Positions 5,076 through 44,174 of a DNA stretch of 60,073 bases are shown here, piece by piece. The notes beneath the pieces are model-generated. The model was given only the letters and a program-made list of their open reading frames with translations. It was not told the origin of the DNA and did no database searches. Location: the IMG/VR virus record IMGVR_UViG_3300032087_004980; one strand, 5' to 3'. This stretch comes from a virus. The stretch's first letter is position 1, and every line of letters begins with the position of its first letter. Both the position numbers and the translations under genes were made by a program.

Positions 5076-5077
5076 CT

Positions 5078-8684: not shown

Positions 8685-8685
8685 T

Positions 8686-8970: not shown

Positions 8971-8973
8971 GAC

Positions 8974-11565: not shown

Positions 11566-11615
11566 CTCGACTCAAAACACAATCACTATAGCAGCAACTG
11601 ATTCTTCAAAGGTAA

Positions 11616-12170
11616 TCAAAAATTTATTGAAACCTTTTTTATTGGATGGCGGTACTCTCTTTTGTACGGCTGAAACCAATATGTTTCAATCTCCTTGAGG
11701 TCATGTATGGTAATGTAGGTTATCAAATCCTCCTGAGGTTCTCCGTTTCCCTTTGCCCAAGCGCTTCGTGAGTAAATCATCTTGTATGCATCCCGTGCAT
11801 TCTGAACGCGCTTAGTCTCTACATTTTCTACGCACCATTCGCGAAGCTTGACTCTCTCTACGCCTGCAAATCCACCCATCTCTGGGATCTCGTACACAAT
11901 CCACTTGGCCTTGCCGTCAATCCAGCCCTTGTCTCCGTTGACGTTCTTGAACTCAACCCAAAGTTGATCAGGACACTTGTTCCCTTTGAGATCCACACCA
12001 AACTTCTCCCCTTTTCTGACGTGCCAGAAGTCAACATGATCAAACATGTCCTCCTCGTCTGTAGATTTTTTAGCGTCAGGCCAGACCTTTCTGTATCGCT
12101 TCACCGCGATGCGATCAGTTTCTCTCGTGCGGTTCTTTCGTTGCTTGGTTATTTTTCGTGGTTGTGTCAT
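11616..12170 (-). CDS. Hypothetical protein, weak PD-(D/E)xK nuclease-like motif
   Basis: 184 aa with a basic N-terminus. The spacing ..FGVDLKG..(20 aa)..VEFKN.. is compatible with a D..ExK core. Confidence 0.65.
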   Translation of the reverse strand: MTQPRKITKQRKNRTRETDRIAVKRYRKVWPDAKKSTDEEDMFDHVDFWHVRKGEKFGVDLKGNKCPDQLWVEFKNVNGDKGWIDGKAKWIVYEIPEMGGFAGVERVKLREWCVENVETKRVQNARDAYKMIYSRSAWAKGNGEPQEDLITYITIHDLKEIETYWFQPYKREYRHPIKKVSINF

Positions 12171-12173
12171 GAG

Positions 12174-12617
12174 TCAGTAGTGGTTTTTTAAAATGTCTTG
12201 AATGGCTTGGTCAACTTGACCTCTGTTTCTTGGTATGTAAACATCACAATCTATTTCGTTTTCAACTAGGTAATTCAGGAAGAGCTTCCATCGCATGTTG
12301 AAGTCATGATGAGAAGGAAGGAATCCTTTTGTCTCAATGATCCACGACATGTCCTTGGCCACAAAGTCAGGGGTGTACTTGATAGGCAGCACCACCTTCC
12401 CCGTCTTGTCAATCATCTCTTTCTTCTTGGGTGTCATCCTCATGTACCTATTCTCATATCGAAAGGATTCGAGGAGGGTGAACTGGTGTCCCTCATAGAC
12501 ATGATCCACCCGCGAAGCACGTAGTTGTTCTGAACAATACTTTTCTAGAGAGGACGCAAACTTCCCGTTTGATTTTTTTTTTGAGGACTTGCGAGTCCTC
12601 GTTCTTTTCTTCCTCAC
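12174..12617 (-). CDS. DUF1064-like PD-(D/E)xK protein (possible structure-specific endonuclease); start uncertain
   Basis: Pattern ..ASSLEKYCSEQL..IKYTPDFV..WIIETKG..F.MRWKLF. The ORF-track start at 12728 is TTG and overlaps the upstream gene by ~100 nt. GTG at 12617 lies 10 nt after the upstream stop. Confidence 0.55.
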   Translation of the reverse strand: MRKKRTRTRKSSKKKSNGKFASSLEKYCSEQLRASRVDHVYEGHQFTLLESFRYENRYMRMTPKKKEMIDKTGKVVLPIKYTPDFVAKDMSWIIETKGFLPSHHDFNMRWKLFLNYLVENEIDCDVYIPRNRGQVDQAIQDILKNHY

Positions 12618-12627
12618 GTATGTGAAG

Positions 12628-14445
12628 TTACGTCTCCTTTTTTTGGGATTCAAGTGAGAAATCAAAGTTGATGGGCATGGGCTTCTTAATCTTCTCCCTA
12701 ATTGGTTGGAACAAAGCTCGTTGTCCAATTCGAGTTGTAAACCCTGTGTGGGAAAGATTCATGACGATGCAGTACGGGTCCTCCAGCGGGGTTGGCTGGC
12801 CCCCAGTCTCTACCTCTCGCACCTTACGCACATGCAACTCACTCATCTTACGAATCATGGGGTCGCTTGATTGAACCTTTCGATGAAGAGTAACGAAGCA
12901 ATCTGCCCTGTTCACGAACTTACCCCCACCTTCCGTGTCCTCAGCGTATGGTGCCACAGGCAATCCATCTGGGCCTTTGCGTCTTTGCGCCTCTGTAACA
13001 GCGTGCATGTTCAACCACACGGCTACGTCGTGCGCTTTGCTGAACGTTAGGAACTCTGACGCTGCCTCGTAGTGGTAGTCGTGCACACCTATGCTGCTGT
13101 TTTTCATGTCCAGCTTCAGTGAGTTGTACGGATCTACAAACACCGCATCAATGGGTGTCTGCCTCATTACCTTCTCGATGAACAGGATGATGTCGCTGTA
13201 GCTATACACCTGCTTGTTGCTGATCACAATGAAGTGGTCCTGCACCCACTTGTACGCCTGCTTCTTCTGCGCGTAGTTCATGCTGCCAATGGCCATGTCC
13301 ATGGCGAACTGCATAAGCGACATCTTTACAGATGCTGTGCGGTTCTCGCTTGAGTATATGACCCATCGCCACCCGTGCCTGATCGCAGAGTTGACCATCA
13401 GGTACAGGGCGGTCGTGGTCTTACCCACATTGGAGTGGCCGTTGATGATTAGGAACTCCTTCTTGTATCTGAAGTAGTCGTCAAGCTTGGGGTCGCCCGT
13501 GTCTAGCCCAATAGGAATCTTACCTTGGGAGTAGTCGTCAATCCAACGGAAGTCCTCGTCATCTGAGGAGATGAAGGACATGTCCCCGTCGTTGAGCAAC
13601 ATCTCACGCTGCGCTGACTTCTCCTCGTCGATGATGTCACGGATGGGCATCTGCTTGCCCTTCTCAATGCCAGCGATAATGGTCTGCTTGGCATGCTCCT
13701 CGTTGTCCAGGTCACGCTTCCCTATCTCACGGAAGAGAACCCTCACTACTTCCTCCTCCTCCATCCTGCCTGCGGAGATGTATCCTCCGCACAAGATGGC
13801 TGCTCGATTCAGTGTAATCCACTTCTCCCCGTCCTTGGCCAGTCGAATCATACGACACGCAAGGTTGAGCTTCATATAGTCTGTGTAGTCGTAGGCCTCG
13901 TTGGTGGGCGTCTGCGCTTCAGCGTGCTCCGTGGTGAAGTGACCAAACTTCTTGTAGTCCTCCTTGACAATAAGGTCTGGGTCGTAAGACTCAAAGCAGG
14001 CGCGTGATTCGTTGATGCCTGACTCGTCAAGCTCCAGACCGTGGGTCCTCTCGAAGTACTTGATCAACGCACGGAAGTGATCGCGATGTCTTTCAGGATT
14101 GGTGATCTGAACCAAGGCCTTCACACCATTCCCACTGGGAGATGTCCAACACGAGTAGATGAAGTCGTCCGTACCCAGGGCCTTCTTGGTTGCGTCCACA
14201 TCGACGTGGTCGAAGTCAAGCACAATGAAACCAGAGTGCTCAAACAAGGCATCGTCTGAGCGCGAAGCAAACTCTCCGCTGAAACAAACGACAGGCAGCT
14301 CTAACTTTTTCTCTTTGTTCCCCTCTCTTACTTTGTCTACAATGCCGCTCGACCGCCCGCTCTGTATCCTTTCGAGCGCTTTGTGTAGGTCAAGGTAGTG
14401 TGGTTGAGTCTTGTCAAAGACATTCTTAAATATCGTGACTTTCAT
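12628..14445 (-). CDS. Primase-helicase (N-terminal primase-like domain plus C-terminal P-loop NTPase)
   Basis: 605 aa. VLDFDHVD and SPSGNGVKALV in the N-terminal half. Walker A GHSNVGKTT and Walker B-like AVFVDPYN in the C-terminal half. Confidence 0.8.
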   Translation of the reverse strand: MKVTIFKNVFDKTQPHYLDLHKALERIQSGRSSGIVDKVREGNKEKKLELPVVCFSGEFASRSDDALFEHSGFIVLDFDHVDVDATKKALGTDDFIYSCWTSPSGNGVKALVQITNPERHRDHFRALIKYFERTHGLELDESGINESRACFESYDPDLIVKEDYKKFGHFTTEHAEAQTPTNEAYDYTDYMKLNLACRMIRLAKDGEKWITLNRAAILCGGYISAGRMEEEEVVRVLFREIGKRDLDNEEHAKQTIIAGIEKGKQMPIRDIIDEEKSAQREMLLNDGDMSFISSDDEDFRWIDDYSQGKIPIGLDTGDPKLDDYFRYKKEFLIINGHSNVGKTTTALYLMVNSAIRHGWRWVIYSSENRTASVKMSLMQFAMDMAIGSMNYAQKKQAYKWVQDHFIVISNKQVYSYSDIILFIEKVMRQTPIDAVFVDPYNSLKLDMKNSSIGVHDYHYEAASEFLTFSKAHDVAVWLNMHAVTEAQRRKGPDGLPVAPYAEDTEGGGKFVNRADCFVTLHRKVQSSDPMIRKMSELHVRKVREVETGGQPTPLEDPYCIVMNLSHTGFTTRIGQRALFQPIREKIKKPMPINFDFSLESQKKET

Positions 14446-14702
14446 GTTGTTGCAAGGTGCTGTTGGTGTTTGTGTTCTTCAAGAGTCAAGTTGGATTTGG
14501 CGATGGGGTTCTTGTCAAGTATCTCCCTGATGATGATCATCTTTTCTGACTTCGCATTCTTGCCGTAAAGCTCTTGGCCCAGCCTCGACATGGTCTTGCC
14601 GTCGTAGTTGCGAATGTCGTTTGGGTTATCGTACACGGATACTATCCACACAACACGCTCGTGCACCCTCTTCTGTTTCTTGAAGGCTACACGAGCGGTC
14701 AT
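14442..14702 (-). CDS. Hypothetical protein (86 aa)
   Basis: ATG at 14702 lies 19 nt after the SSB-like stop. The longer ORF-track version (to 14906) overlaps the SSB-like gene out of frame. ATGA-type overlap with the primase-helicase start. Confidence 0.5.
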   Translation of the reverse strand: MTARVAFKKQKRVHERVVWIVSVYDNPNDIRNYDGKTMSRLGQELYGKNAKSEKMIIIREILDKNPIAKSNLTLEEHKHQQHLATT

Positions 14703-14721
14703 GTGATAGATAGTTGCCTTA

Positions 14722-15024
14722 TCAGAAGGGGAGGTCATCCTCCTTCTGTGGCTGCGCCTTCTTCTTCTCTGCGCGTTTCTCCTTTGCAGCTTCGCTGTTT
14801 GGATCGAACACACGGATGCAAGGCTTGCCGTTCTTGGACATGAAGAAGGTGATGTAGATGTTGCCGCCCTGGCCCTCTTCGTTTCGAGAGGTGGCGTACT
14901 TGTCAATCATCTCCTTCAGTTCATGGTCTTTGAATCGACCAGACCAACGGGACAACTCGCCCTCGTAGTAGACGGGCTCTTCTGCGTACCCAACGAGTAC
15001 GGAATCATACTTTTTGTCACTCAT
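14722..15024 (-). CDS. Small SSB-like protein with acidic C-terminal tip
   Basis: 100 aa ending ..KEDDLPF, like the DDDIPF tip of bacterial SSBs. Lies in the replication/recombination cluster. Confidence 0.6.
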   Translation of the reverse strand: MSDKKYDSVLVGYAEEPVYYEGELSRWSGRFKDHELKEMIDKYATSRNEEGQGGNIYITFFMSKNGKPCIRVFDPNSEAAKEKRAEKKKAQPQKEDDLPF

Positions 15025-15086
15025 GACGTATAGATTAGATAATTAAAATGATTATAAAACAAATGGTTGCGAAAGCAATCTCTTCT

Positions 15087-15854
15087 TTAGACGATAAAAT
15101 CTGCATAGTAAGTCTCTGTGCTGGAGTTTCCATCGAGCCAGTTCTTGATGTTCTCTACACCCTGGTGGAACTTCATCTCACCTGAGAACAGGGTCTCGTC
15201 TGAGCACTTCACCTTAGCAGGGAGGTAGGGGTACGTCTTCTCTTGCACCACCCAGTAGAAATCCTTGATGCCAAACACCTTGGTGTAAATGTAGGCCTGA
15301 ATGTCGTAGCTGAACGACCGCACATCGTACTTGAACTTGTCGATACCCCTCGATGACTTGGAGTCTACGATGTTGTCTTCATTCAAGCAGTCGAGGAACC
15401 CCTTGACTGGGATGCCGTCGATGTCCTCGTTGAACTCCACCTGAAACTGACCACTCAACAGCTCTGACCTGAGTCCGCAGATGCCAAGCCTGTCGATCAT
15501 GGCGGCGGCCTTCTTCCAGTCCTCGCCCGTGACAACTTCCTGTCCTGCCTCCAACGCTTCAGCAGTAGCAGCAGCCAGTCGCTCCTTGTACTTGGTCGTA
15601 AGCTTGGGCCGCGAAGAGTTGATGCCACGCGCAAGGTCCTCGTCATTCAGCACTCTGTAGTGGTTCATCGCCTTCTCCCGCTCAAACAAGAGCATGTCGT
15701 ACAAGGTGCCAAAGCGCAAGGCCTCGCTCTCTTTGTATAGCTCACCCTTCATGTACATCTCCCACACCTTCATGTCACCAAGTGCATGCTTGATGCTTGA
15801 GTAGGACAGGTGGCCCTTGTCGAACCTCTCTGTTAGTTGTTCGCGCATCGTCAT
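15087..15854 (-). CDS. PD-(D/E)xK recombination exonuclease (RecB/Cas4/lambda-Exo-like)
   Basis: 255 aa. Motifs ..GFLDCL..IVDSKS.. and ..QAYIY.. (D, DxK, QxxxY). Overlaps the annealing-protein gene by 4 nt. Confidence 0.65.
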   Translation of the reverse strand: MTMREQLTERFDKGHLSYSSIKHALGDMKVWEMYMKGELYKESEALRFGTLYDMLLFEREKAMNHYRVLNDEDLARGINSSRPKLTTKYKERLAAATAEALEAGQEVVTGEDWKKAAAMIDRLGICGLRSELLSGQFQVEFNEDIDGIPVKGFLDCLNEDNIVDSKSSRGIDKFKYDVRSFSYDIQAYIYTKVFGIKDFYWVVQEKTYPYLPAKVKCSDETLFSGEMKFHQGVENIKNWLDGNSSTETYYADFIV

Positions 15855-16405
15855 CGCACGAACTTCTTGAGCCCTGCCTGCTGCTTGTCCGTCAGCTGAT
15901 CACCATACTTCTTGACGATACTATCAAACGCTTTTTGCTTGTCCGTCTGGCCTTTGATGTAGCTGACTGCCTTGTCCATGATGTTCTCCACGGGTGCGTC
16001 GAGAGCCTTGCTCAACTTCTGAACCTTTGGGTCATCAATCATGGCTTGTTGCTTGGCAATCGCCTCCTCAACCTCGTTGGCTGAAGCGATGGATGTGTCA
16101 ATGCCAATACCCAACATGGCAAGAGCACGTCCAATCGCTGATGTTTCGCAGTTCTCTACGAAGCTTGTCTTGTTGATGTTGCTAGACCCTCGCTCTTCAT
16201 GTGCGTGACCCGTGCTTACCACACGCCCCTTGTCGTCTGCGATGGTGGCCTTGCACACTGCGACGTCAGCGTCGAGGTGCGTGAACTCTGACATCAGAGT
16301 CCAGTTCTTGTACTGCTCCTCCTGGCGGAAGAACTTGATGCGTTCGTTGACTTCAACGTACTGCTTGCCACGAATGTTCGTGGTCTTGAACTTGTAATTT
16401 GACAT
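15851..16405 (-). CDS. Single-strand annealing protein candidate (Rad52/Sak-like)
   Basis: 184 aa. ..ENCETSAIGRALAMLGIG.. resembles the conserved hairpin-helix region of Rad52-like SSAPs. Paired with the exonuclease. The true ATG is at 16405 (ORF-track start 16411 is TTG). Confidence 0.5.
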   Translation of the reverse strand: MSNYKFKTTNIRGKQYVEVNERIKFFRQEEQYKNWTLMSEFTHLDADVAVCKATIADDKGRVVSTGHAHEERGSSNINKTSFVENCETSAIGRALAMLGIGIDTSIASANEVEEAIAKQQAMIDDPKVQKLSKALDAPVENIMDKAVSYIKGQTDKQKAFDSIVKKYGDQLTDKQQAGLKKFVR

Positions 16406-16441
16406 TGTCAATAAATTAAATTGGGTGTGGAAAGTTACGAT

Positions 16442-16882
16442 TTAGTCCTCGAAAGAACAAGCGGCAATGACTTCTTCATGCAGGATTAGGTAGTGTTCTG
16501 CCACAGACATCATGTCGAGCATCCCGTTGCGCATGATCTGTAGTGCGTTGTGCAAATCCTTGCATAGAATGAGCGCATTCTCGCTGTCTACCATGCCGTC
16601 AATCATCAGCTCCATCTCAAGCAGACTCTTGGTGTCGTCAATTACTTCTTGCGTGAATTTCTCTGCTACAAGGCGCACAGACTCAACGACCCTGTCGCTA
16701 TCCCATTGACACCATTTGCCGTATGTGTTTTCGATGAGGTCAGCCACGGCAATGTCCGTCGCACTAGCAACATGCCTCATGTCGCTGTTCATGTACGGCC
16801 TCAGCTTCTCCACCGCATTCCTTGTGTTTACATCGAGGTCATACGATGCCATCTCGTCTTGCCATTCTTGTTCAGTCATCAT
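16442..16882 (-). CDS. Acidic hypothetical protein (146 aa)
   Basis: ORF with tandem ATG ATG start; Asp/Glu-rich throughout. Confidence 0.7.
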   Translation of the reverse strand: MMTEQEWQDEMASYDLDVNTRNAVEKLRPYMNSDMRHVASATDIAVADLIENTYGKWCQWDSDRVVESVRLVAEKFTQEVIDDTKSLLEMELMIDGMVDSENALILCKDLHNALQIMRNGMLDMMSVAEHYLILHEEVIAACSFED

Positions 16883-17003
16883 TTTTCTTTTTGAATTTCT
16901 TTAGTGCTCTCTCCATCTTCCTGCGTCTGGCGCGTGGAGAGTGTTCGTTCCTATTCCCAAGCAGATGCTTGAGAAACTTCTCTGTGTTGTCGTCCTTCTT
17001 CAT
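16872..17003 (-). CDS. Small basic ORF (43 aa)
   Basis: Hand translation gives MKKDDNTEKFLKHLLGNRNEHSPRARRRKMERALKKFKKKNDD. ATGA overlap with the upstream stop; 11-nt overlap with the downstream gene. Confidence 0.35.
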   Translation of the reverse strand: MKKDDNTEKFLKHLLGNRNEHSPRARRRKMERALKKFKKKNDD

Positions 17004-17413
17004 CGCGCCATGTGTGCAAGCATTCCACATTCACTGATGAGCAAGTCCAAGGCCTCCTCATACATCTGCCTGTACACGTCGTCGTACTCAAGCAGGTTGT
17101 TCGATACGCGGCAACTATTCACAACGGTCGCATGATCACGCCCACCCAGTGTCTGCCCAATCTCCTTGAGCGTAAGGCGTGTGAACTTCCTGACCATGGA
17201 GCAGTATGCGTGCCGCGCAAAGGCCAGTGTCTGCACCCGCGACTTGCTTTTCATCTCGTCTGGGTCTACGTCAAACGAGTTGCAAACTGCTCGCATCGCA
17301 ATGTTTGGGATGTCTGTCTGTTGTTCAGCTCGTTGCTTCACCCTGTACTTCTTGCCTTCGTGTAGGCCAACATAGACCCATGCCCCTGGCGTTAGTTTGT
17401 CTCCGTAATTCAT
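17000..17413 (-). CDS. DnaA domain IV-like HTH DNA-binding protein
   Basis: 137 aa. ..LAFARHAYCSMVRKFTRLTLKEIGQTLGGRDHATVVNSCRV.. parallels the DnaA C-terminal motif (..SLPEIG..FGGRDHTTV..). Confidence 0.6.
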   Translation of the reverse strand: MNYGDKLTPGAWVYVGLHEGKKYRVKQRAEQQTDIPNIAMRAVCNSFDVDPDEMKSKSRVQTLAFARHAYCSMVRKFTRLTLKEIGQTLGGRDHATVVNSCRVSNNLLEYDDVYRQMYEEALDLLISECGMLAHMAR

Positions 17414-17793
17414 GCGTAAATTTTTCTGTCGTGAGTCATCATGACACTGAACTTCTTGCCGTCCATGTTGGGGTTGGTGTCAGTGAACCAGTGAGGATTT
17501 TTGCGCGGGTTGTACTTGTACTGCGTCATGCCGTTGACTGGGGGCGGGATGACCTTGCCTCTGTCTCTGACCTCGACATCCTCGCACGCGACCCATGCGC
17601 ATACGTTCTTGTTTGCACCCTCGAATATCTTTCTTGCCCTGCCTTCGCGATTCCCAAGCTCGCAGTTGAACATGATTATTGAATTGGTTTCAGGGTCTAG
17701 GTATTTCTTGGTGCCGCGCTTCTTGTCGAACACCTGCCACTTCATGTAGTTATCCCCGTTCGCGAGGTGGAATCTCACTCTGTATCTTTTCAT
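17410..17793 (-). CDS. Hypothetical protein (127 aa)
   Basis: ORF with ATG start and ATGA overlap downstream. The N-terminus overlaps the upstream gene by 44 nt; an alternative ATG lies at 17745. Confidence 0.65.
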   Translation of the reverse strand: MKRYRVRFHLANGDNYMKWQVFDKKRGTKKYLDPETNSIIMFNCELGNREGRARKIFEGANKNVCAWVACEDVEVRDRGKVIPPPVNGMTQYKYNPRKNPHWFTDTNPNMDGKKFSVMMTHDRKIYA

Positions 17794-17938
17794 CTTGTAG
17801 TTTTAGTTTCATTTTGGCTTCCCAATCGCGGACCATGCAGTCGAGCATCATCTTGTCTTGCGGGGATGCGGTCAATTCAAATCGCCTCATGCGGGCCTCT
17901 ATCTCCGCCCACTTCTGATCGAGGTACTCGTTAGTCAT
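17750..17938 (-). CDS. Hypothetical protein (62 aa)
   Basis: ATG at 17938 (ORF-track start 17944 is GTG); 8-nt overlap with the upstream gene. Confidence 0.5.
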   Translation of the reverse strand: MTNEYLDQKWAEIEARMRRFELTASPQDKMMLDCMVRDWEAKMKLKLQDEKIQSEIPPRERG

Positions 17939-18305
17939 TTTCACTTACGCGTTTGGTGAGCTTGCGTTCAAGCATAGCAACCTGGTCGTCACGCAGGGCT
18001 ACGATTTCACGCTGCTCACGCCACGCCTTCTTGTACACCTGCGTCTCGTGATACTCCTCATTGTACGCCTTGGACATGTGTTTGAGTTGGCTATTGAGTT
18101 CAGCAATCTCGTCTGACATCAGGGCCATGTTGGTCTTGAGTTCCTCGTTGCGCTCGCCCACCTCTACGTTCTCGTCGAGTAGCTTGTCAGCGTATTGCTT
18201 CATGTTGTTGTATGCGTGTTCAAGCTCATCGACTTCACTCTTGAGTCGTGCCACCTCACGTTCGAGGGCGACTTCATGTCCTGTGTTTACTTTGTATGTG
18301 TGCAT
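17931..18305 (-). CDS. Coiled-coil protein (124 aa)
   Basis: Heptad-rich sequence (EREVARLKSEVDELEHAYNNMKQYADKLLDENVEVGERNEELK..). Confidence 0.7.
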   Translation of the reverse strand: MHTYKVNTGHEVALEREVARLKSEVDELEHAYNNMKQYADKLLDENVEVGERNEELKTNMALMSDEIAELNSQLKHMSKAYNEEYHETQVYKKAWREQREIVALRDDQVAMLERKLTKRVSEND

Positions 18306-18484
18306 TACCAGTCGATTTCTGCGTTATGATTGATTGTTGTGAGGTGTACTTCGTTGGAGAACGGGAGGCTCTGCACAAAGAAGTCGTAGGTGTCGTCTGT
18401 CACGATCACGCCACGCACATCGAGTGTGATGAGCGCGTCGTCTGGGTATTCGTACAAGGCGTCGATGAGTTCAGCTTTTGTCAT
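18305..18484 (-). CDS. Small protein, paralog A of the MTK..L.D.[IL].EYPDDA family (59 aa)
   Basis: Hand translation gives MTKAELIDALYEYPDDALITLDVRG.. It is below the ORF-track size cut-off. TAATG and ATGA couplings on both sides. Confidence 0.55.
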   Translation of the reverse strand: MTKAELIDALYEYPDDALITLDVRGVIVTDDTYDFFVQSLPFSNEVHLTTINHNAEIDW

Positions 18485-18678
18485 TGCTCGTTCTTGATTG
18501 GGCAGAGCCGTAGCTCGTGCATTTTTGTCATTTGATTACCGTCGATGCGTGTCCATGAGATGGGGTCAAACGTGAAGTCGTACAGGTCTTCGTAAAGTGC
18601 GGTGTCATGCACCTCGATTACTACCTCTGCATCGTCAGGATATTCTGCGATGAGGTCAGCCAGTTGTTTCTTCGTCAT
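18481..18678 (-). CDS. Small protein, paralog B of the MTK..L.D.[IL].EYPDDA family (65 aa)
   Basis: Internal ATG of the 82-aa ORF gives MTKKQLADLIAEYPDDAEVVIEVHD.., similar to the downstream neighbour. Confidence 0.6.
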   Translation of the reverse strand: MTKKQLADLIAEYPDDAEVVIEVHDTALYEDLYDFTFDPISWTRIDGNQMTKMHELRLCPIKNEQ

Positions 18679-18784
18679 GGTATTCGTTTTCGAGTTGGTA
18701 AAGGGTGTCCAGAACCTGTTGCAGGTCATACTTGATGTCCGCCACCTTGTGGCAGAGGTCTTCGATGATTTCGTGTCGTGTCAT
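18656..18784 (-). CDS. Mini-ORF (42 aa)
   Basis: MTRHEIIEDLCHKVADIKYDLQQVLDTLYQLENEYHDEETTG; ATGA-coupled to the upstream mini-ORF. Confidence 0.35.
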   Translation of the reverse strand: MTRHEIIEDLCHKVADIKYDLQQVLDTLYQLENEYHDEETTG

Positions 18785-18876
18785 TTGTCTTGGATGTATC
18801 TGATGATGCATAGGATTCCCAGTGCCGTCAGGTACAAGCATAGTCCTGACAGGCAGTAGATGTCGAACGTTGTCAT
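18781..18876 (-). CDS. Hydrophobic mini-ORF (31 aa, single TM)
   Basis: MTTFDIYCLSGLCLYLTALGILCIIRYIQDK; ATGA-coupled on both sides. Confidence 0.35.
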   Translation of the reverse strand: MTTFDIYCLSGLCLYLTALGILCIIRYIQDK

Positions 18877-19283
18877 TGCGCAATCTTGATGTAGATGTCT
18901 GATGGCGCGGTGTCGTAGTACTTGAGCAACGCAGGGCACAACCAGAAAGGGAAGGCCACCATGTCGTCGTCACCCTCGAACTTTGCAACCTTGTAGAAGT
19001 GTCCGTCGTACCCGTCTGCCCCCGTCAATACAGCGTGTACGTCGTGCTCTGGGATAGGGGTAGTGCTGAAGGCGATTGACACATTGGTATTTGTGCCGTC
19101 AATGTGGCGGCCTGAAAGGTGGTCGAACAGGATGTCTGCGCCTGCTACGAAAGGTTCTTTGACAAGGCCTACAGAGTCGTCGTCAAACACCCACATACCT
19201 GCATGGCGGTATGCGTCGAGGGTGTATATGGCGTTGGTTGGCTTTGACTTGGGGCGGATGAGGTTGTCGATGAATGAAAGCAT
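18873..19283 (-). CDS. Hypothetical protein (136 aa)
   Basis: Clean ORF with ATG start, preceded by the CACTCAAAACAC leader motif. Confidence 0.75.
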   Translation of the reverse strand: MLSFIDNLIRPKSKPTNAIYTLDAYRHAGMWVFDDDSVGLVKEPFVAGADILFDHLSGRHIDGTNTNVSIAFSTTPIPEHDVHAVLTGADGYDGHFYKVAKFEGDDDMVAFPFWLCPALLKYYDTAPSDIYIKIAQ

Positions 19284-19304
19284 AGTGTTGTGTTTTGAGT
19301 GTGA

Positions 19305-19508
19305 TTAAGGGAAAAGTCCGTCGAGGTAGAAGTTTTCGTAGGTGTCTCGAACTTGACTCAATTCTTTACGTGAGAGGTATGTGAGAAGGGTACGCAATTC
19401 TGATGCGATTACGTCTGGGTCTTGCTTGGCCATGAACAGAACGTACTCCTCTGCCCACCCTTCTTCGTTCCACAGGCCGTCCTTGCAAAGGTTGATGTCG
19501 TCGCTCAT
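19305..19508 (-). CDS. Hypothetical protein (67 aa)
   Basis: ORF with ATG start, ATGA-coupled upstream. Confidence 0.6.
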   Translation of the reverse strand: MSDDINLCKDGLWNEEGWAEEYVLFMAKQDPDVIASELRTLLTYLSRKELSQVRDTYENFYLDGLFP

Positions 19509-19633
19509 TTTTTTTTGGGTTTGGGTTTAGGCTTTGGGATGGTCACGAAGTGAATGTTGTGCTTCTTGAGTGCTTTCTCCTGCATGTCTGCAAGCTCTTT
19601 TACGAGGTTGAATTGTTTGTTGTCTGCGCTCAT
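19505..19633 (-). CDS. Mini-ORF (42 aa) ending PKPKPKPKKK
   Basis: Hand translation gives MSADNKQFNLVKELADMQEKALKKHNIHFVTIPKPKPKPKKK; ATGA-coupled on both sides. Confidence 0.4.
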   Translation of the reverse strand: MSADNKQFNLVKELADMQEKALKKHNIHFVTIPKPKPKPKKK

Positions 19634-19776
19634 GTGAGATCAAATGCTGTGCCCTTGAAGGCGTTTTCGAGGATGAGTTTGTTGTTGCTGTCTGCATGAT
19701 ACCATGCGTCGATGAGTCGATACATGAAGCCACCGCAGGTCTTCTGTCGCTGCTCAAGTTTTTCGTTCTGTGTCAT
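19630..19776 (-). CDS. Mini-ORF (48 aa)
   Basis: MTQNEKLEQRQKTCGGFMYRLIDAWYHADSNNKLILENAFKGTAFDLT; ATGA-coupled on both sides. Confidence 0.45.
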   Translation of the reverse strand: MTQNEKLEQRQKTCGGFMYRLIDAWYHADSNNKLILENAFKGTAFDLT

Positions 19777-19949
19777 GATTGTGGTGTGATTTCAAATGCT
19801 CGTACTTCGTAGAACTTCTGGTACTCCTCCTTGTAGCTGTCGAGTACTGCTTGGGCACGCCCCTCCCTCTCGAAGAAGGTGTACGAACTGAAGATGTCTT
19901 CAGACGCAGGGTTGCCTGTGGTCTTGTGTGAGATTGCGTATAGAGTCAT
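19773..19949 (-). CDS. Hypothetical protein (58 aa)
   Basis: Internal ATG of the 72-aa ORF, ATGA-coupled to the upstream stop. Confidence 0.5.
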   Translation of the reverse strand: MTLYAISHKTTGNPASEDIFSSYTFFEREGRAQAVLDSYKEEYQKFYEVRAFEITPQS

Positions 19950-20149
19950 GCTTCTTGCTTTTTGGTTTGGAGGTATTGGTCCGCCCTCCAAAGGATTTCC
20001 TGCTTGGAGATTTGAACGTAGATGTCAGGGTTGACGGTTTGTACGAGGATGGTGTCATCGCCTGCCTCTTGAGCGATGTCGTCGATTTCAGCGTGGATGT
20101 CGAGCCGCTCGAACATTGCGAGGGCATCTTGTAGTGTGGACTTGTTCAT
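19946..20149 (-). CDS. Hypothetical acidic protein (67 aa)
   Basis: ORF with ATG start and ATGA coupling. Confidence 0.6.
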   Translation of the reverse strand: MNKSTLQDALAMFERLDIHAEIDDIAQEAGDDTILVQTVNPDIYVQISKQEILWRADQYLQTKKQEA

Positions 20150-20367
20150 GTGTCTTGAGTTTCAAATTGGTAGTCGTCCTCGTCCTCCCACTCCGTGTAG
20201 TAGTAGTATTCGTCGTCGTATGCCTCCTGTGCGGTCTTGTATGATGTGTGCTCCTTGAGCCACCACTCAATACCCACTTCTTCAGAGACGTAGTACTCGC
20301 CATCGCAGATGCAGAACCCCTTGTTCATGCCCTTGCCTGTGACGTCACATTGTCTTGCGTATTTCAT
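20146..20367 (-). CDS. Small protein with a Cys cluster and an extremely acidic/aromatic tail (73 aa)
   Basis: MKYARQCDVTGKGMNKGFCICDGEYY..EAYDDEYYYYTEWEDEDDYQFETQDT. ATG at 20367 is ATGA-coupled to the upstream mini-ORF. Confidence 0.55.
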   Translation of the reverse strand: MKYARQCDVTGKGMNKGFCICDGEYYVSEEVGIEWWLKEHTSYKTAQEAYDDEYYYYTEWEDEDDYQFETQDT

Positions 20368-20474
20368 GTCAATTCGTTTTCGTTTAGGTCGATGCACTCC
20401 TGACAGCATTGGCGTGTTTCTGCCGTCTCGTCTGTTGGAAAGAAGTGCGTCCCGCATATTGAACAAGGTTTCAT
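20364..20474 (-). CDS. Zinc-ribbon-like mini-protein (36 aa)
   Basis: MKPCSICGTHFFPTDETAETRQCCQECIDLNENELT (CxxC ... CCxxC). Confidence 0.45.
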   Translation of the reverse strand: MKPCSICGTHFFPTDETAETRQCCQECIDLNENELT

Positions 20475-20475
20475 G

Positions 20476-20811
20476 TCAGTGTGCTTTGCGGTTGATGTCC
20501 TTGCCTGTCTTGACGGAAACGCTTCCGTCTGCATGCAGGTGGTACTCGTACTCCTCCCACATGTCTGCGTCGATAGGCACAATGCCCCACCCCGTGTCCC
20601 GTGACGGGTCGAGGTTGAACCTGTCTGCATCCCGTGCGCTTGACCGCAGGAGTTGGGCGAGTTTGTATTCAGGGTCGTCGCCTCGCGCCCTTGCAAAGTT
20701 TTTGTTGAACTCCTCAAGCCAAGGGAGGGTGGCTTCTTCGTACCCGTCCCAGTGCTTGTATGCTTTCACGGAGGGCTGTCCCTCCACAATGATGGTTGCT
20801 CGTGTTGCCAT
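20476..20811 (-). CDS. Hypothetical protein (111 aa)
   Basis: Clean ORF with ATG start. Confidence 0.7.
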   Translation of the reverse strand: MATRATIIVEGQPSVKAYKHWDGYEEATLPWLEEFNKNFARARGDDPEYKLAQLLRSSARDADRFNLDPSRDTGWGIVPIDADMWEEYEYHLHADGSVSVKTGKDINRKAH

Positions 20812-20813
20812 GA

Positions 20814-21077
20814 TTAGCTGTATTTTTTGTCGATTCGTTGTTGAGTTTCCTCACAGCACTCTACCCATGCTTGCATATTGATGAGCGAGATTGCGCCTCC
20901 GTCCTCACGTCGCTTGCGCTCGTCTTCGAGGATTTCGTCTTTCTGTGAGATGTAGTGGTCAAGGCCACGTTGCAAGCAGTCGAGTACGACCATCTGCACA
21001 AGTGCGCCGTGCTTGGAGTAGCCCTCCATGAGGTGTTGCATGAACTCCCCGTTCGTCATGTCCTGTGTGTTCTGCAT
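20814..21077 (-). CDS. Hypothetical protein (87 aa), first gene after early promoter P1
   Basis: ATG at 21077 lies ~30 nt downstream of the P1 -7 box and is preceded by the CTCAAAACAC leader. The upstream extension of the ORF runs through the promoter. Confidence 0.6.
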   Translation of the reverse strand: MQNTQDMTNGEFMQHLMEGYSKHGALVQMVVLDCLQRGLDHYISQKDEILEDERKRREDGGAISLINMQAWVECCEETQQRIDKKYS

Positions 21078-21110
21078 GTTGGTGTGTTTTGAGTTGCCGT
21101 CGTTGGCACT

Positions 21111-21144
21111 GCAAAGATATGAACAAATTGTCGAGAATCCAAAT
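21111..21144 (-). promoter_or_regulatory. Early promoter P1 (Bacteroidetes -33/-7 type)
   Basis: Minus strand reads ATTTGGATTCTCGACAATTTGTTCATATCTTTGC, i.e. TTTG-N20-TATCTTTG. 31/34 identical to P2. Confidence 0.7.
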
Positions 21145-21166
21145 TTAATTGGTAAGTCACTGATTG

Positions 21167-21316
21167 TCAGCGGGTTTCGTAGACCTCGTCTAACGTCATC
21201 CGCTTGTTGCGTTTCATGTATGCGGCGTAGTTGTGCAGGTGCCGCTCGTCCTCGAACTCGCGGGTCACATACCACACCCGTCCGTCCCATGTGTTGAACT
21301 TGAGCGTGCGCTTCAT
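21167..21316 (-). CDS. Mini-ORF (49 aa)
   Basis: MKRTLKFNTWDGRVWYVTREFEDERHLHNYAAYMKRNKRMTLDEVYETR. ATGA-coupled upstream; ends just before P1. Confidence 0.45.
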   Translation of the reverse strand: MKRTLKFNTWDGRVWYVTREFEDERHLHNYAAYMKRNKRMTLDEVYETR

Positions 21317-21669
21317 TTGATTGCCAATCGTTTTTCGTTTTGTTTCACGGCGCGCTCAACCGCTTGGTATGCTGAACTCCCGTTGAGGTCGAGCCAAAAC
21401 TCGCCCCAATTATCGCACATGATCATGTATGCGTCACCTGTCGCGGTTGGTGCGTAACCTTCGACGTTGAACCCCATGCGCTTGAGGGTGTTGATGCCCT
21501 GCTTCAGCACGTCTCCCGTGAAGTAGTCGTAGCTGAATGTCCTGCGGGACTTGATGCCTTCGAACCTGTGTGCGCTTGGCTCCGTGATGGTGATGCGCGC
21601 GCCCTTGTGATTGGTTGGTCCGTTGAACTTCACCTTGAACAGGCGGAATTGTGGTGTGTTGTCTTTCAT
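21313..21669 (-). CDS. Hypothetical protein (118 aa)
   Basis: Clean ORF with ATG start and ATGA couplings. Confidence 0.7.
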   Translation of the reverse strand: MKDNTPQFRLFKVKFNGPTNHKGARITITEPSAHRFEGIKSRRTFSYDYFTGDVLKQGINTLKRMGFNVEGYAPTATGDAYMIMCDNWGEFWLDLNGSSAYQAVERAVKQNEKRLAIK

Positions 21670-21851
21670 TTTGAGAAGTTTAGGAGGTTGTCGAGTTGGA
21701 TTTCAAGGCGTGCCACTGCGGCATCTGCCTTGCGTGCAATGTCTGCCTGCACCTTGATGGCGCGCTTGGTGTCTTCGATGAGGTCGTTCCTCTGCGTGAG
21801 GAAGTCCGTGTACGCCCGCTCTGCGGGGTCGAGTACGATGTTTTCGTTCAT
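21666..21851 (-). CDS. Hypothetical helical protein (61 aa)
   Basis: ORF with ATG start and ATGA couplings. Confidence 0.55.
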   Translation of the reverse strand: MNENIVLDPAERAYTDFLTQRNDLIEDTKRAIKVQADIARKADAAVARLEIQLDNLLNFSK

Positions 21852-22003
21852 TTCTGCTTGTTTTTCAAGTATTCAACGGCTTCCGCAATGCTCTGGCACT
21901 GGGGTGTGGGTTCGTGTGTCCCGTCTGCGAAGTGCAACTTGTTGAGTTCAGGGGCATAAGCGTGCCGCTCAAGGCCCAGGAATGGGTGGATGCGCTTGTT
22001 CAT
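21848..22003 (-). CDS. Mini-ORF (51 aa)
   Basis: Internal ATG (MNKRIHPFLG..) is ATGA-coupled to the upstream hydrophobic mini-ORF. Confidence 0.4.
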   Translation of the reverse strand: MNKRIHPFLGLERHAYAPELNKLHFADGTHEPTPQCQSIAEAVEYLKNKQK

Positions 22004-22107
22004 GTGAAAGGGTTTTTGAGGTTCATCCAATCGCTGATGAGTTGGACAATGATGGCCCCGCAGATGCCGCAGGCGGCCCATGTGAAGATGGTTTGGATTG
22101 TTTCCAT
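22000..22107 (-). CDS. Hydrophobic mini-ORF (35 aa, single TM)
   Basis: METIQTIFTWAACGICGAIIVQLISDWMNLKNPFT; TAATG and ATGA couplings. Confidence 0.35.
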   Translation of the reverse strand: METIQTIFTWAACGICGAIIVQLISDWMNLKNPFT

Positions 22108-22241
22108 TATGCGAAAATTTCATTTTCGACGTGCATTTGCTCGTCGCAGGTGAGTGTGTCCCACTCGTGTGTGGTGGTGGCTTGTTCGATTGTCAGCCCC
22201 TCGAACATGGAGGCGATTGCTTGCATACGGATGTGTTGCAT
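22107..22241 (-). CDS. Mini-ORF (44 aa), first gene after early promoter P2
   Basis: ATG at 22241 is preceded by the CACTCAAAACACACACCACC leader, ~45 nt downstream of the P2 -7 box. Confidence 0.45.
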   Translation of the reverse strand: MQHIRMQAIASMFEGLTIEQATTTHEWDTLTCDEQMHVENEIFA

Positions 22242-22287
22242 GGTGGTGTGTGTTTTGAGTGAGTCACCTCCCGCTGTGGAAGGCTCC

Positions 22288-22321
22288 GCAAAGGTATGAA
22301 CAAAATGTTGAGAATCCAAAT
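22288..22321 (-). promoter_or_regulatory. Early promoter P2
   Basis: Minus strand reads ATTTGGATTCTCAACATTTTGTTCATACCTTTGC, i.e. TTTG-N20-TACCTTTG. Confidence 0.7.
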
Positions 22322-22351
22322 CTAATTTGCTTCCCGTTGGTTTTCAGTGAG

Positions 22352-22954
22352 TTAGCGACCCCATCGACGACGGATGGCCACCCATACGGCTGCCTGTAGC
22401 TCGTATCCCTGCACGCCTAGTTCCTGCGCAACCTTGCGCGTTTCCTCCGCGACCGCGTCGTATTGCAGGGGCGTTACCTGTGTGCGGAGTTCTTTGGGCT
22501 GTTTGGAGGCACTTTGGACGGCCCTCATGTGCCACTTGTCCACGGTCACATACGCTCGATCGAGTGCGCACACGTTACGGGCGAACGCATACGTCTTGCG
22601 TGAGGATGGCTCGATTTCTTTGCGCCCCTGCGCAATGGCAAAGGCTTTCAACTTGTTGGCGTCGTAGGTACAGCACTTGACCGCTTCCGCAGGCACGCCG
22701 TCGCGCACCGCCTGCATGACTGCGTGTGCGTCTTGCTTGTTTCGTTCCCAAACATTGTTGGGGGAAAGGGCGGAGATGACTTGCGCGGCACGGGCGGTTG
22801 AGCACTCGAACTCACGCGCAAGCTCTTGGGCGTATGCCTGCGCTTCCGTGTACCATGTGCGCCCGTGTGCTCGCTCGTCAGGGGTGCATTCGTTCCACCA
22901 AAGGCGGAGGTTCTTGCGTATGCGCTTACGCGCTTGTGTGTCCGTGAAGGGCAT
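22352..22954 (-). CDS. Hypothetical protein (200 aa), GC-rich early gene
   Basis: Clean ORF with ATG start and GC-rich codons. No motif I can assign. Confidence 0.7.
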   Translation of the reverse strand: MPFTDTQARKRIRKNLRLWWNECTPDERAHGRTWYTEAQAYAQELAREFECSTARAAQVISALSPNNVWERNKQDAHAVMQAVRDGVPAEAVKCCTYDANKLKAFAIAQGRKEIEPSSRKTYAFARNVCALDRAYVTVDKWHMRAVQSASKQPKELRTQVTPLQYDAVAEETRKVAQELGVQGYELQAAVWVAIRRRWGR

Positions 22955-22965
22955 GGGTCAGTGGA

Positions 22966-23553
22966 TTAGTGAGTGAGGGCTACCACGTCAGCGTAGGTGC
23001 TCACGTCCGCGCTTCCAAGCAGGCGGGTGAGTTCAGCCTGTTGGCCGTCCGTGTACACGCCTCCGTGGCTTTCGCTGAAAGCCCACATGGTGGCAAGGTC
23101 GAAGGCTTGACGCTTGCGGTTGCGGGCACCTGTCTCCCGTGCGGCCTTGCGGGCCGCGTCTACGTCCGCTGTGTGCGCCTCTGCCTGTGGGGTCACGGGG
23201 GTGTCAGGGCGTCCGTGGTAGGTGCGGGCTTGGCGGTCTGCAACCCGTTCGCTTGGGGTTGCCTTGCGCACCTTGGGTGCGCTCTTGCGCTTGGGCTTGC
23301 GCTTGGGCTTGGCCGCCTCCGCCTTCGCAGGGGTGGCGAGCAGGAGGTCAACCAGTTGAGCCTTGGTGAGTCGCATGAGGCTGGCCTTCGTGGGCGTGGC
23401 CGCCTTCGCAGGCTTGCTCGCCTGCTTGCGCTTGGGTGTGCTCGCCTTGAGTTCCGCCTTGAACTTCGCTTTGTTGGCGGCCTTGCGCTCAGCACGGGTG
23501 AACTTGCGCCCTGTGTCTGGGCAGTGTGTGGGGGTGTAGTGGGCAGTTGCCAT
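22966..23553 (-). CDS. Lys/Ala/Pro-rich basic protein (histone-H1-like low-complexity region plus a C-terminal globular part), first early gene
   Basis: ATG at 23553 lies ~37 nt downstream of the P3 -7 box. Sequence ..KAANKAKFKAELKASTPKRKQASKPAKAATPTKA..AKAEAAKPKRKPKRKSAPKVRKA.. The ORF-track N-terminal extension runs through the promoter. Confidence 0.65.
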   Translation of the reverse strand: MATAHYTPTHCPDTGRKFTRAERKAANKAKFKAELKASTPKRKQASKPAKAATPTKASLMRLTKAQLVDLLLATPAKAEAAKPKRKPKRKSAPKVRKATPSERVADRQARTYHGRPDTPVTPQAEAHTADVDAARKAARETGARNRKRQAFDLATMWAFSESHGGVYTDGQQAELTRLLGSADVSTYADVVALTH

Positions 23554-23592
23554 GGGTGAAAGGTTTTGAGTGACTTCGACGTTGAAGCCACC

Positions 23593-23626
23593 GCAAAGGT
23601 ATGAACAACTTGTGGAAAATCCAGCG
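23593..23626 (-). promoter_or_regulatory. Early promoter P3 (conserved -7 box, diverged -33)
   Basis: Minus strand reads CGCTGGATTTTCCACAAGTTGTTCATACCTTTGC. It shares GTTGTTCATACCTTTGC with P2. Confidence 0.6.
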
Positions 23627-23746
23627 GTCTTCTCGTGCGCGATTTCTCCCGCGTGAAGGGTACGTAGTACCCCGCGTGGAAACAGGCGAAGAAGCGTAGC
23701 GTAGCGGGTGGGTGGCGTGGGGGTGTGAAGCCCCCCAAGATTTGGC

Positions 23747-23786
23747 GTTGATAATTGACTGTTGATATTGGCATTGATTGTCCACA
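23747..23786. repeat. Three ~13-nt TTGAT-type iterons ending in a DnaA-box-like 9-mer (TTGTCCACA, 23778-23786)
   Basis: GTTGATAATTGAC-T-GTTGATATTGGCA-TTGATTGTCCACA read directly. The 9-mer matches TTATCCACA at 8 of 9 positions. Confidence 0.5.
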
Positions 23787-24070
23787 AAATCAGCAAGTTG
23801 CAGGCTTTGGAATAGCAATACAAAACGCTTCGTGTGTGCCCCCATAATGGGTGGATGCGTTGCGTCTGTGCATGGGTGAGGGGATTGATACCAACCTGCG
23901 CAGAACTGCGTTACGCACGGACACCTACACGTAAGGTGCAGGTACACGGGGCTAACTCTCTGTCTGTCAGGCAAGTACGCTACAAAAAAGCTGAAAATCT
24001 ACGCGCAAACGCACGTATGCATAGGGGTAGGGGTGCGTCAGATGCGTTTCTGTGTGCGTATGCTAGCGTG

Positions 24071-24086
24071 TATATATATATATAAT
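24071..24086. repeat. (TA)7 microsatellite / easily melted element ending in TATAAT
   Basis: tatatatatatataat in the non-coding control region. Confidence 0.9.
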
Positions 24087-24151
24087 CCCCACGCTCTGTG
24101 TAGCTCACCACTTTTTGCGATCAGATTCTTTCAACAGAAGCATAAGCATGC

Positions 24152-24163
24152 CTTTACGTAAAG
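24152..24163. promoter_or_regulatory. 12-bp perfect palindrome CTTTACGTAAAG (operator candidate)
   Basis: Self-complementary sequence located ~60 nt upstream of the candidate rightward promoter. Confidence 0.35.
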
Positions 24164-24223
24164 CTTCCTATTTGAATCGTTCACAGGCAGTTAAGCTACA
24201 GCGGTTGAAGCGATGCTTTAGGG

Positions 24224-24254
24224 TTGAAACTGAAAATTTTCCTTTGTAACTTTG
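24224..24254 (+). promoter_or_regulatory. Candidate rightward promoter (TTG-N20-TAACTTTG)
   Basis: Same -33/-7 spacing as the leftward early promoters. Lies 93 nt upstream of ATG 24347. Confidence 0.5.
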
Positions 24255-24346
24255 CTAAACTTTCTGTGATGGTTGAAACAGATAGAAATATTTGGGTGCA
24301 TGTGCACTGAGAGTCCTTTTTCTTTGTATCAAAGGATAGCTATATC

Positions 24347-26192: not shown

Positions 26193-26200
26193 TATATTTG
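26193..26200 (+). promoter_or_regulatory. Late-type -7 box TATATTTG, 4 nt before ATG 26205
   Basis: The intergenic sequence AATTAGTATATTTGacccATG has the same 14-mer (AATTAGTATATTTG) as at 38897-38910. Confidence 0.5.
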
Positions 26201-32121: not shown

Positions 32122-32195
32122 GCCCCTGTAGCTCAACAGGATAGAGCAACGCACTTCTAATGCGTAGGTTTCAGGTTCGAGTCCTGACAGGGGTA
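32122..32195 (+). tRNA. trnR: tRNA-Arg (anticodon UCU)
   Basis: Hand-folded cloverleaf. Acceptor GCCCCTG/CAGGGGT, D-arm GCTC-AACAGGATA-GAGC, anticodon arm ACGCA-CTTCTAA-TGCGT, T-arm TCAGG-TTCGAGT-CCTGA, discriminator A. Confidence 0.9.
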
Positions 32196-32209
32196 CGAAA
32201 TTAAATACA

Positions 32210-34476: not shown

Positions 34477-34484
34477 TATATTTG
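34477..34484 (+). promoter_or_regulatory. Late-type -7 box TATATTTG upstream of the portal gene
   Basis: Intergenic CTTATATTTGcataaatgactaagcttgcataATG. Confidence 0.4.
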
Positions 34485-38902: not shown

Positions 38903-38910
38903 TATATTTG
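38903..38910 (+). promoter_or_regulatory. Late-type -7 box TATATTTG
   Basis: AATTAGTATATTTG (identical 14-mer at 26187-26200), 19 nt before ATG 38930. Confidence 0.5.
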
Positions 38911-44166: not shown

Positions 44167-44174
44167 TATATTTG
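44167..44174 (+). promoter_or_regulatory. Late-type -7 box TATATTTG directly after the terminator
   Basis: TTTTTACTATATTTGtaaggaataaaatgcaATG. Confidence 0.45.

Follow-up and report, generated by a model that had tools for sequence, protein, structure and literature searches.

Promoters read by the primary sigma factor of the Bacteroidota follow a consensus with TTTG at -33 and TAnnTTTG at -7 (PMC2483708, PMC9330008, PMC7366714), a type that was defined in Bacteroides fragilis and Flavobacterium johnsoniae and is referred to here as sigma-A-Bfr. In the case of F. johnsoniae the -7 element lies at -12 to -5 and has been refined to TAHHTTTG, transcription starts 4-5 nt past the G of the -7 box, the mean leader length is 33 nt, and the -33 box is less conspicuous than the A/T-rich motifs at -18 and -28 (PMC6847099); initiation of translation independently of a Shine-Dalgarno sequence has also been described for the Bacteroidota (PMC6847099). 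Amongst phages, a repeated promoter unit with a linked stem-loop is known as the promoter-early stem-loop (PeSL) cassette of T4-type phages (PMC2839356, PMC4122927). The subject of the present analysis is a set of three related elements, P1, P2 and P3, on the minus strand of IMG/VR virus record IMGVR_UViG_3300032087_004980, a stretch of 60,073 nucleotides that is called the window below (meaning always its full length) and that amounts to a roughly 60-kb phage genome encoding a terminase, a portal and virion proteins. Judged from sequence, these elements are very probably paralogous promoter-leader cassettes that would be used by the host primary sigma factor (sigma-A-Bfr type) and would drive the leftward gene block from 23553 to 11616.

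The elements are three co-oriented copies of 31-34 nt (Table 1). When the minus strand was read from 20900 to 23800, the 34-mers quoted in the preliminary description of this DNA were found to be exact in every letter and coordinate, as was its figure of 31/34 for the identity of P1 and P2 (3/34 positions differ); mutual identities over all three copies are 77-91%. The count of three copies also holds for the window as a whole, since a scan with the degenerate 31-nt core TGGATTYTCNACANTTTGTTCATAYCTTTGC, allowing up to 3 mismatches, matched P1-P3 only, compared with 0.00 matches expected from 100 shuffles. An independent repeat search returned P1-P3 as the top direct-repeat family (43 nt) and traced the similarity of P1 and P2 over 81 nt (21096-21176 compared with 22273-22353), while the bare bipartite pattern TTTG-N19-21-TAnnTTTG gave 3 matches in the window vs 0.77 expected. 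The copies occupy non-coding gaps (21078-21166 for P1, 22242-22351 for P2 and 23554-24346 for P3), share the orientation of the minus-strand gene block, and each precede an ATG (at 21077, 22241 and 23553 respectively); the measured spacings from 34-mer to ATG, 33, 46 and 39 nt, come close to the 30-45 nt that had been given. By direct count the GC content of the cores is 32% for P1, 32% for P2 and 44% for P3, that of the surrounding stretch being 53-58%. On this arrangement P3 would be the first leftward promoter of a divergent control region.

Table 1. Positions of the predicted promoter cores, stem-loops, leader motifs and associated genes in the window.
Feature	Position	Strand	Remarks
P1 promoter core (predicted)	21111-21144	-	-33 TTTG 21140-21143; -7 TATCTTTG 21112-21119; predicted +1 21107/21108
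P2 promoter core (predicted)	22288-22321	-	-33 TTTG 22317-22320; -7 TACCTTTG 22289-22296; predicted +1 22284/22285
P3 promoter core (predicted)	23593-23626	-	-7 TACCTTTG 23594-23601; GCTG at -33 23622-23625; predicted +1 23589/23590
P1 5'-terminal stem-loop GCC-AACGAC-GGC	21096-21107	-	-4.5 kcal/mol
P2 5'-terminal stem-loop GCCTTCC-ACAGC-GGGAGGT	22266-22284	-	-10 kcal/mol
P3 5'-terminal stem-loop GGCTTC-AACGTC-GAAGTC	23572-23589	-	-7.2 kcal/mol
Leader motif ACTCAAAAC	21086-21094	-	8 nt before ATG 21077
Leader motif ACTCAAAAC	22252-22260	-	10 nt before ATG 22241
Leader motif ACTCAAAAC	23563-23571	-	9 nt before ATG 23553
Leader motif ACTCAAAAC	19292-19300	-	8 nt before ATG 19283, in a 21-nt gap without promoter
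Leader motif ACTCAAAAC	11570-11578	+	convergent junction near 11.57 kb
First gene after P1, 87 aa	20814-21077	-	mechanical ORF 20814-21290 crosses promoter; gene precisely missing in L137
First gene after P2, 44 aa	22107-22241	-	mechanical ORF 22107-22319 crosses promoter; gene precisely missing in L104
First gene after P3, 195 aa, lysine/alanine/proline-rich	22966-23553	-	mechanical ORF 22966-23823 crosses promoter; orthologues begin at same ATGGCAAC
Bac_DnaA_C protein, 137 aa, largely DnaA domain IV helix-turn-helix	17000-17413	-	PF08299, E = 8.6e-20, above curated cut-off

Compared with the published promoters, all three copies carry an exact -7 box, which in each case also satisfies the refined form TAHHTTTG, and P1 and P2 have in addition TTTG at -36 to -33, so as to read TTTG-N20-TA(T/C)CTTTG in full. 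The -33/-7 geometry that had been claimed is thereby upheld for P1 and P2, and for P3 in its -7 half but not at -33. Predicted leaders of about 30 nt (P1), 43 nt (P2) and 36 nt (P3) may be set against the published F. johnsoniae mean of 33 nt (PMC6847099). The spacers contain the words ATTCTC or ATTTTC near -28 and AATTTGTT, ATTTTGTT or AAGTTGTT near -18, and in being A/T-rich around these two positions P1-P3 are like the F. johnsoniae host promoters; a further likeness to sigma-A-Bfr genes is that the start contexts are without a Shine-Dalgarno sequence and have A at -3 in 2/3 cases (PMC6847099). Unlike host sigma-A-Bfr promoters, P1-P3 are phage-borne, present in several copies, and similar to each other over an extended stretch of some 72-81 nt. 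Around -33 the consensus for the family is TA(A/G)ATTTGGA, and the -33 TTTG of P1 and P2 is itself nested in a second TAnnTTTG-like word (TAAATTTG at 21140-21147 and TAGATTTG at 22317-22324, both on the minus strand), which could be either a tandem -7-like box 28 nt upstream or merely an A/T-rich upstream element. Promoters of the sigma-70 type are not enriched in 17-25 kb (6 vs 4.8 expected), and Rfam gave no match. An exact pattern scan of IMG/VR found one contig only, and one of 185,579 species genomes of bacteria and archaea found no occurrence, which argues that it is neither a host promoter nor a prophage repeat; on the evidence of these scans the element is phage-specific.

Much of the weight of the argument comes from relatives, which were fetched from IMG/VR and marine metagenomes with the 200-aa protein encoded at 22352-22954 (between P3 and P2). 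The family-wide scan covered 140 related loci in viral and marine metagenome contigs, the sequences being related to one another and not independent. Two lineages bear orthologous P3, P2 and P1 cassettes: lineage A (L095, L096, L097, L103, L104 and L137), at 86-98% protein identity, and lineage B (L098 and L100-L102), at about 82%. Orthologues of P1 are seen in L095, L096, L104 and L137; those of P3 are found in L103, L097, L098 and L100-L102, where the spacer is longer by 0-1 nt and the -33 region varies (TTTG in L097, L098 and L101, TATG in L100 and L102). More distant loci (L002, L105-L114, L048, L077, L079 and others) combine unrelated spacers with the same architecture: an A-rich tract leads into TTTGGA(A/T), which a spacer of ~20 nt separates from TATCTTTG, and there follow a palindrome that is short and G+C-rich, a leader rich in A and C that carries (A)CTCAAAA(C), and the ATG. 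Over the 140 loci, distinct TAYCTTTG boxes with TTTG 18-21 nt upstream make up 41/90 of those on the gene strand and 0/76 of those on the opposite strand, so the motif is not one scattered through coding DNA in random orientation, and in the repeat scan 31 of the 40 bipartite sites retained had an ATG-initiated open reading frame (ORF) 21-52 nt downstream.

Within lineage A the core of P2 is identical at 35/35 nt in six genomes (the window, L095, L096, L097, L104 and L137), and the block from -62 to +10 around it has 2/73 variable columns, compared with 37/176 (~21%) in the adjacent upstream coding sequence (Fisher p = 1e-4); for the P1 block the corresponding figures are 10/73 and 75/208, in a comparison that includes a poorly aligned upstream stretch. 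The differences private to P1 or P2 (G/A, A/T and T/C) have been kept across five to six diverged genomes. These observations show that the elements are under purifying selection and, because P2 is invariant and the private differences are stable, that the likeness of P1 and P2 is old and maintained by selection rather than the product of a recent copying event. The preliminary description had seen that conservation goes well beyond the boxes, and had suggested an additional binding factor or a recent duplication: the conservation is indeed present, from about -62 to +10, while recent duplication finds no support and an extra factor is unnecessary, since the conserved block corresponds approximately to the stretch, upstream tract included, that RNA polymerase would be expected to contact. 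Concerted evolution of the paralogues within a genome was also considered and set aside, as the one clear diagnostic position (GGATT in lineage A vs GGTTT in lineage B) is not enough to carry it.

The putative full unit reaches beyond the 34-mer and is made up of an A/T-rich upstream tract, the -33/-7 boxes, a stem-loop beginning at the predicted +1, and an unstructured leader containing ACTCAAAAC. On folding, each of P1-P3 gives a stem-loop that starts exactly at the predicted +1. In L097 the stem of P3 has undergone a compensatory double change (CTTC/GAAG to CCTC/GAGG), and in L095, L104 and L137 the P2 stem shows a one-sided change, G-U to A-U, by which the pair is kept. As the stems are not homologous between cassettes, a comparison of folding energies took the place of covariation across leaders. 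Over 29 distinct leaders the mean minimum free energy of positions +1 to +24 is -4.86 kcal/mol vs -1.99 kcal/mol for shuffles (p = 3e-5, which like all the leader-folding p-values is indicative only, the leaders being related); for comparison, positions +25 to +48 give -0.93 and coding sequence -2.90 kcal/mol. The hairpin sequences differ from one cassette to the next, while the -33/-7 boxes are conserved. Hairpins at the 5' terminus guard mRNA against 5'-end-dependent decay, and the stem-loops seen here would stabilise the mRNA. The leader motif ACTCAAAAC has 5 matches in the window vs 0.72 expected, 4 of them on the minus strand and 8-10 nt before ATGs, and because the copy before ATG 19283 has no promoter, the motif is assigned to translation initiation rather than to the promoter. 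The A/C-rich leader as a whole would support initiation of the Shine-Dalgarno-independent kind.

All three genes that follow the elements are orphan small ORFs for which the mechanically called reading frames run through the promoter. The later starts proposed for them earlier have proved sound: relatives carry 1-nt indels within the putative ORF extensions at P3 and P2, and the orthologues begin at the same ATGs. In the case of P3 the indel falls inside the promoter itself, from which it follows that this stretch is non-coding.

The genes of the window run rightward over 174-11540 and 24347-58555 and leftward over 11616-23553, the leftward block consisting, in order, of small orphan genes, a DnaA-domain-IV protein, a PD-(D/E)XK-like protein and a primase-helicase of the BT4734 type. 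That the host belongs to the Bacteroidota had been proposed from the promoters, and the proposal has gained support that is independent of them. A 713-aa protein encoded at 5512-7653 (plus strand) ends in a Por_Secre_tail sorting domain of the type IX secretion system; the primase-helicase has a BT4734-like N-domain; and the nearest cultured relatives grow on Flavobacteriaceae, the top matches of the primase-helicase among named isolates being phages of Maribacter, Cellulophaga and Flavobacterium, with phages of Nonlabens and Tenacibaculum also among the matches. Indirect as it is, resting on domains and cultured relatives, this evidence supports expression of the replicon carrying P1-P3 in a Bacteroidota cell, and the phage would be an uncultured marine podovirus of the Bacteroidota, probably of Flavobacteriia. 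A megablast search of 20-26 kb against 50,697 phage records gave no match, so that no cultured phage among them is close at the DNA level, and the backbone is common to many uncultured marine viral contigs of 50-66 kb.

Some other features of the genome may be noted in passing. The GC content of 20000-24000 is 53-58%, vs 42-50% in the remaining genome, and in the stretches around the primase-helicase (<=10 kb each side) the P1-P3 type of promoter is missing from most of the backbone relatives; these two facts together suggest that the early module is a mosaic insert with promoters of its own. A protein of 1633 aa (174-5075, plus strand) is without a known domain, and a virion protein of 2779 aa (48155-56494, plus strand) has a crAss muzzle domain (PF25731) and an EF-hand-like loop, DTDGDGIITAE. 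A lone tRNA-Arg(TCT) gene (32122-32196, plus strand) lies just 5' of the terminase gene.

The course of events envisaged for P1-P3 as host-type promoters is that, after entry of the DNA, host RNA polymerase with its primary sigma factor (sigma-A-Bfr type) would recognise TA(T/C)CTTTG at -12 to -5 and, in P1 and P2, also the TTTG at -36 to -33, with help from the A/T-rich tract upstream of -33 and from the A/T-rich parts of the spacer near -18 and -28. Transcription would start 4-5 nt past the -7 G, at about 21107, 22284 and 23589, and each transcript would open with a short G+C-rich stem-loop protecting its 5' end. The leader would go on for 30-43 nt as an unstructured, A/C-rich sequence with ACTCAAAAC placed 8-10 nt before the AUG, where it may act as a Shine-Dalgarno-independent translation-initiation region. 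Terminator-like sites on the minus strand of 17-25 kb number none, and because terminators between the three promoters are absent, transcription from P1-P3 would add up along the operon.

There are, of course, points that weigh against such an assignment. In P3 the -33 TTTG is replaced by GCTG, and this box also varies in the P3 orthologues; the "textbook" fit holds for the consensus derived from B. fragilis; the z-scores of single-leader stem-loops are modest (-1.1 to -2.4); and the family statistics rest, as already said, on related sequences. In addition, in phi14:2, a crAss-like Cellulophaga phage, the genes served by host-polymerase promoters are the middle and late ones and not those expressed early (bioRxiv 10.1101/2020.03.07.982082), and it is mainly for this reason that the "early" timing of P1-P3 is treated as something that we infer from genome position only. 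The early RNAs of phi14:2 are made by a virion polymerase, and one might accordingly ask whether P1-P3 could be promoters for a phage-encoded or virion-delivered RNA polymerase of N4-like or crAss-like type, with the hairpin as recognition element, given that a hairpin accompanies each of three early promoters and that giant proteins of 1633 and 2779 aa are encoded, the latter with its crAss muzzle domain. Neither of these proteins, however, has an RNA polymerase match in Pfam, PHROGs or PDB sequences (all of them tests at the sequence level), so that no such polymerase is detectable by these means; the catalytic DxDxD is not found in the 1633-aa protein, and the sole DxDGD of the 2779-aa protein falls in the EF-hand-like loop. 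It also tells against this idea that hairpin sequences vary between cassettes while the host-type boxes are conserved, and that the early promoters of phi14:2 share no motif (bioRxiv 10.1101/2020.03.07.982082). The muzzle-like giant protein does leave some room for a virion polymerase, but the idea seems very improbable. P1-P3 resemble the middle promoters of phi14:2, likewise found in a Flavobacteriia phage as an extended multi-block motif that is sense-oriented, intergenic and repeated upstream of genes, although those promoters resemble -35/-10 and are used by E. coli sigma-70 holoenzyme whereas the motif of P1-P3 is -33/-7. Hardly to be credited either is the notion that the copies are recently duplicated DNA devoid of promoter function: their identity of 77-91% is indeed by descent, but each copy is more conserved than the neighbouring coding sequence, the private differences of P1 and P2 are stable in five to six diverged genomes, every copy lies between genes, points in their direction and keeps a fixed distance to an ATG, and lineages with unrelated spacers retain the same -33/-7 boxes.

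Two further proposals are compatible with host-type promoters rather than opposed to them. According to one, which appears improbable, P1-P3 would combine promoter and operator, the spacer (TT-N-TC-N-ACA, with ACA-N3-TGT) being bound by a phage regulator so that early transcription is shut off or tuned. The 137-aa DnaA-domain-IV protein (for which the mechanical ORF picker chose a spurious plus-strand ORF instead) is the candidate for this role, with host DnaA as an alternative. The relaxed form of the DnaA box is TTWTNCACA. In keeping with the proposal, homologues of the phage-encoded Bac_DnaA_C protein occur in several related contigs, the P3 spacer has a match to the box (TTTTCCACA, 23611-23619), a second, inverted box (TTGTCCACA, 23778-23786, plus strand) lies 159 bp upstream in the best-conserved intergenic block, and every position of the P2 spacer is invariant in the six genomes. 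DnaA-like boxes are not, however, enriched in the window (2 vs 6.4, 9 vs 14.6 and 10 vs 11 expected), the P1 and P2 spacers are off at two positions of the box so that P3 is the only match, distant lineages have quite different spacers, DnaA_C homologues being encoded on some of those contigs too, the paralogous spacers of lineage C are only about half alike (by eye), and conservation from -62 to +10 is what an RNA polymerase footprint would lead one to expect. A mini-palindrome in the spacer, ACAA-N-TTGT, was separately considered as the site of a dimeric repressor and rejected, since only P1 and P3 have it in perfect form, P2 and several orthologues having it interrupted, and since it is in any case too short.

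According to the other proposal, which is on balance unlikely but has more to be said for it, the promoter-leader unit of about 75-80 nt would also serve as a stretch of homology for the gain, loss and swapping of small early genes, as PeSLs do in T4. Like PeSLs, P1-P3 have a repeated promoter of the host sigma type, an A/T-rich upstream tract (consensus aAAtTAaATTTGGA), a linked stem-loop, small orphan genes downstream, and a plastic region with gene-sized indels and swaps near the elements. The 81-nt similarity of P1 and P2 speaks for the proposal, and searches of close relatives against the window with BLAST place several breakpoints at cassettes: L104 is without exactly the 44-aa gene after P2; L137 is without exactly the 87-aa gene after P1, the P1 leader being joined to the TAATCATG of the next gene; L135 has the upstream gene and the P2 promoter in common with the window, homology ending ~4 nt past the -7 box; and in lineage B the place of P2 is taken by a P1-type cassette, of which the first 22 transcribed nt are 68% identical to P1 and 36% to P2. 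Gene-precise indels are also found, however, at promoter-less junctions (for instance at 21848 in L095, L096 and L097), so promoters are not the sole breakpoints, and independent rearrangement events are few; moreover P1 and P2 stay distinct in six genomes, which excludes ongoing homogenisation. Unlike PeSLs, the elements number only three copies per genome and belong to a different host sigma type, and the stem-loop, which in PeSLs is an upstream terminator or attenuator (PMC2839356), lies here past +1, has no T-run, and is accompanied by no minus-strand terminator in 17-25 kb. A still more speculative extension, somewhat less likely than gene exchange at the units alone, is that promoter, stem-loop and ACTCAAAAC leader together would form an exchangeable expression cassette throughout a large group of uncultured marine Bacteroidota podoviruses, driving early genes and at the same time acting as recombination substrate for the shuffling of small orphan genes, and so constituting a Bacteroidota counterpart of the T4 PeSLs with the stem-loop in the mRNA, the spacer perhaps being read in addition by the DnaA-domain-IV protein.

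As regards the uses of these findings, reading P1-P3 as host-type promoters assists annotation, in that promoters, transcription starts and start codons can be called in the early region of a group of marine Flavobacteriia phages that is abundant but uncultured, and it offers a host signal at phylum level for which DNA alone suffices. Compact promoter-leader cassettes of some 80 nt, under strong selection, might also be put to use for gene expression in Bacteroidota, where E. coli signals fail. The conceptual gain is small, host-consensus promoters being expected for the first genes of a phage and extended conservation being known from T4-type phages; what is added, modestly, is a defined cassette of promoter, stem-loop and leader, with hints of cassette exchange.

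Other promoter-like sequences were noticed in the window, as well as features of the region upstream of P3. This region, 23554-24346, comprises 793 nt of non-coding sequence between divergent promoters, the putative rightward one being TTGAAACTGAAAATTTTCCTTTGTAACTTTG at 24224-24254 (plus strand), ~92 nt before ATG 24347; L041, L057, L086 and L065 have an equivalent site, TTGACTTTTAAAAA...TA(A/C)CTTTGC. Within it are a (TA)n run near 24070-24085, a palindrome GGGTAC-TAC-GTACCC at 23658-23672 with direct CACGCGGG repeats on its flanks, and the conserved DnaA-box-like TTGTCCACA mentioned above, and the region is possibly a replication origin or control region. Exact TATATTTG boxes on the plus strand number six vs 1.48 expected (26193-26200, 34477-34484, 37563-37570, 38903-38910, 44167-44174 and 46441-46448). 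Each is on the coding strand within the block of structural genes, ~4-30 nt before an ATG and without a -33 TTTG, and two come after terminator-like hairpins with T-runs; they resemble a second class of promoter, probably late, which in some cases would give near-leaderless transcripts. Before ATG 16405 (the conserved gene beginning MSNYKFKTT) the sequence in relatives is TATATTTG, TAAATTTG or TATCTTTG and then AATTTAATTTA, and at 16406-16441 (minus strand) the window has TAACTTTC, in which an otherwise invariant G is changed to C. Finally, a TACCTTTG box at 11607-11614 (minus strand), preceded by an A/T-rich tract, lies at a convergent junction and points antisense into the gene at 9339-11540; it may be due to chance or be an antisense promoter.

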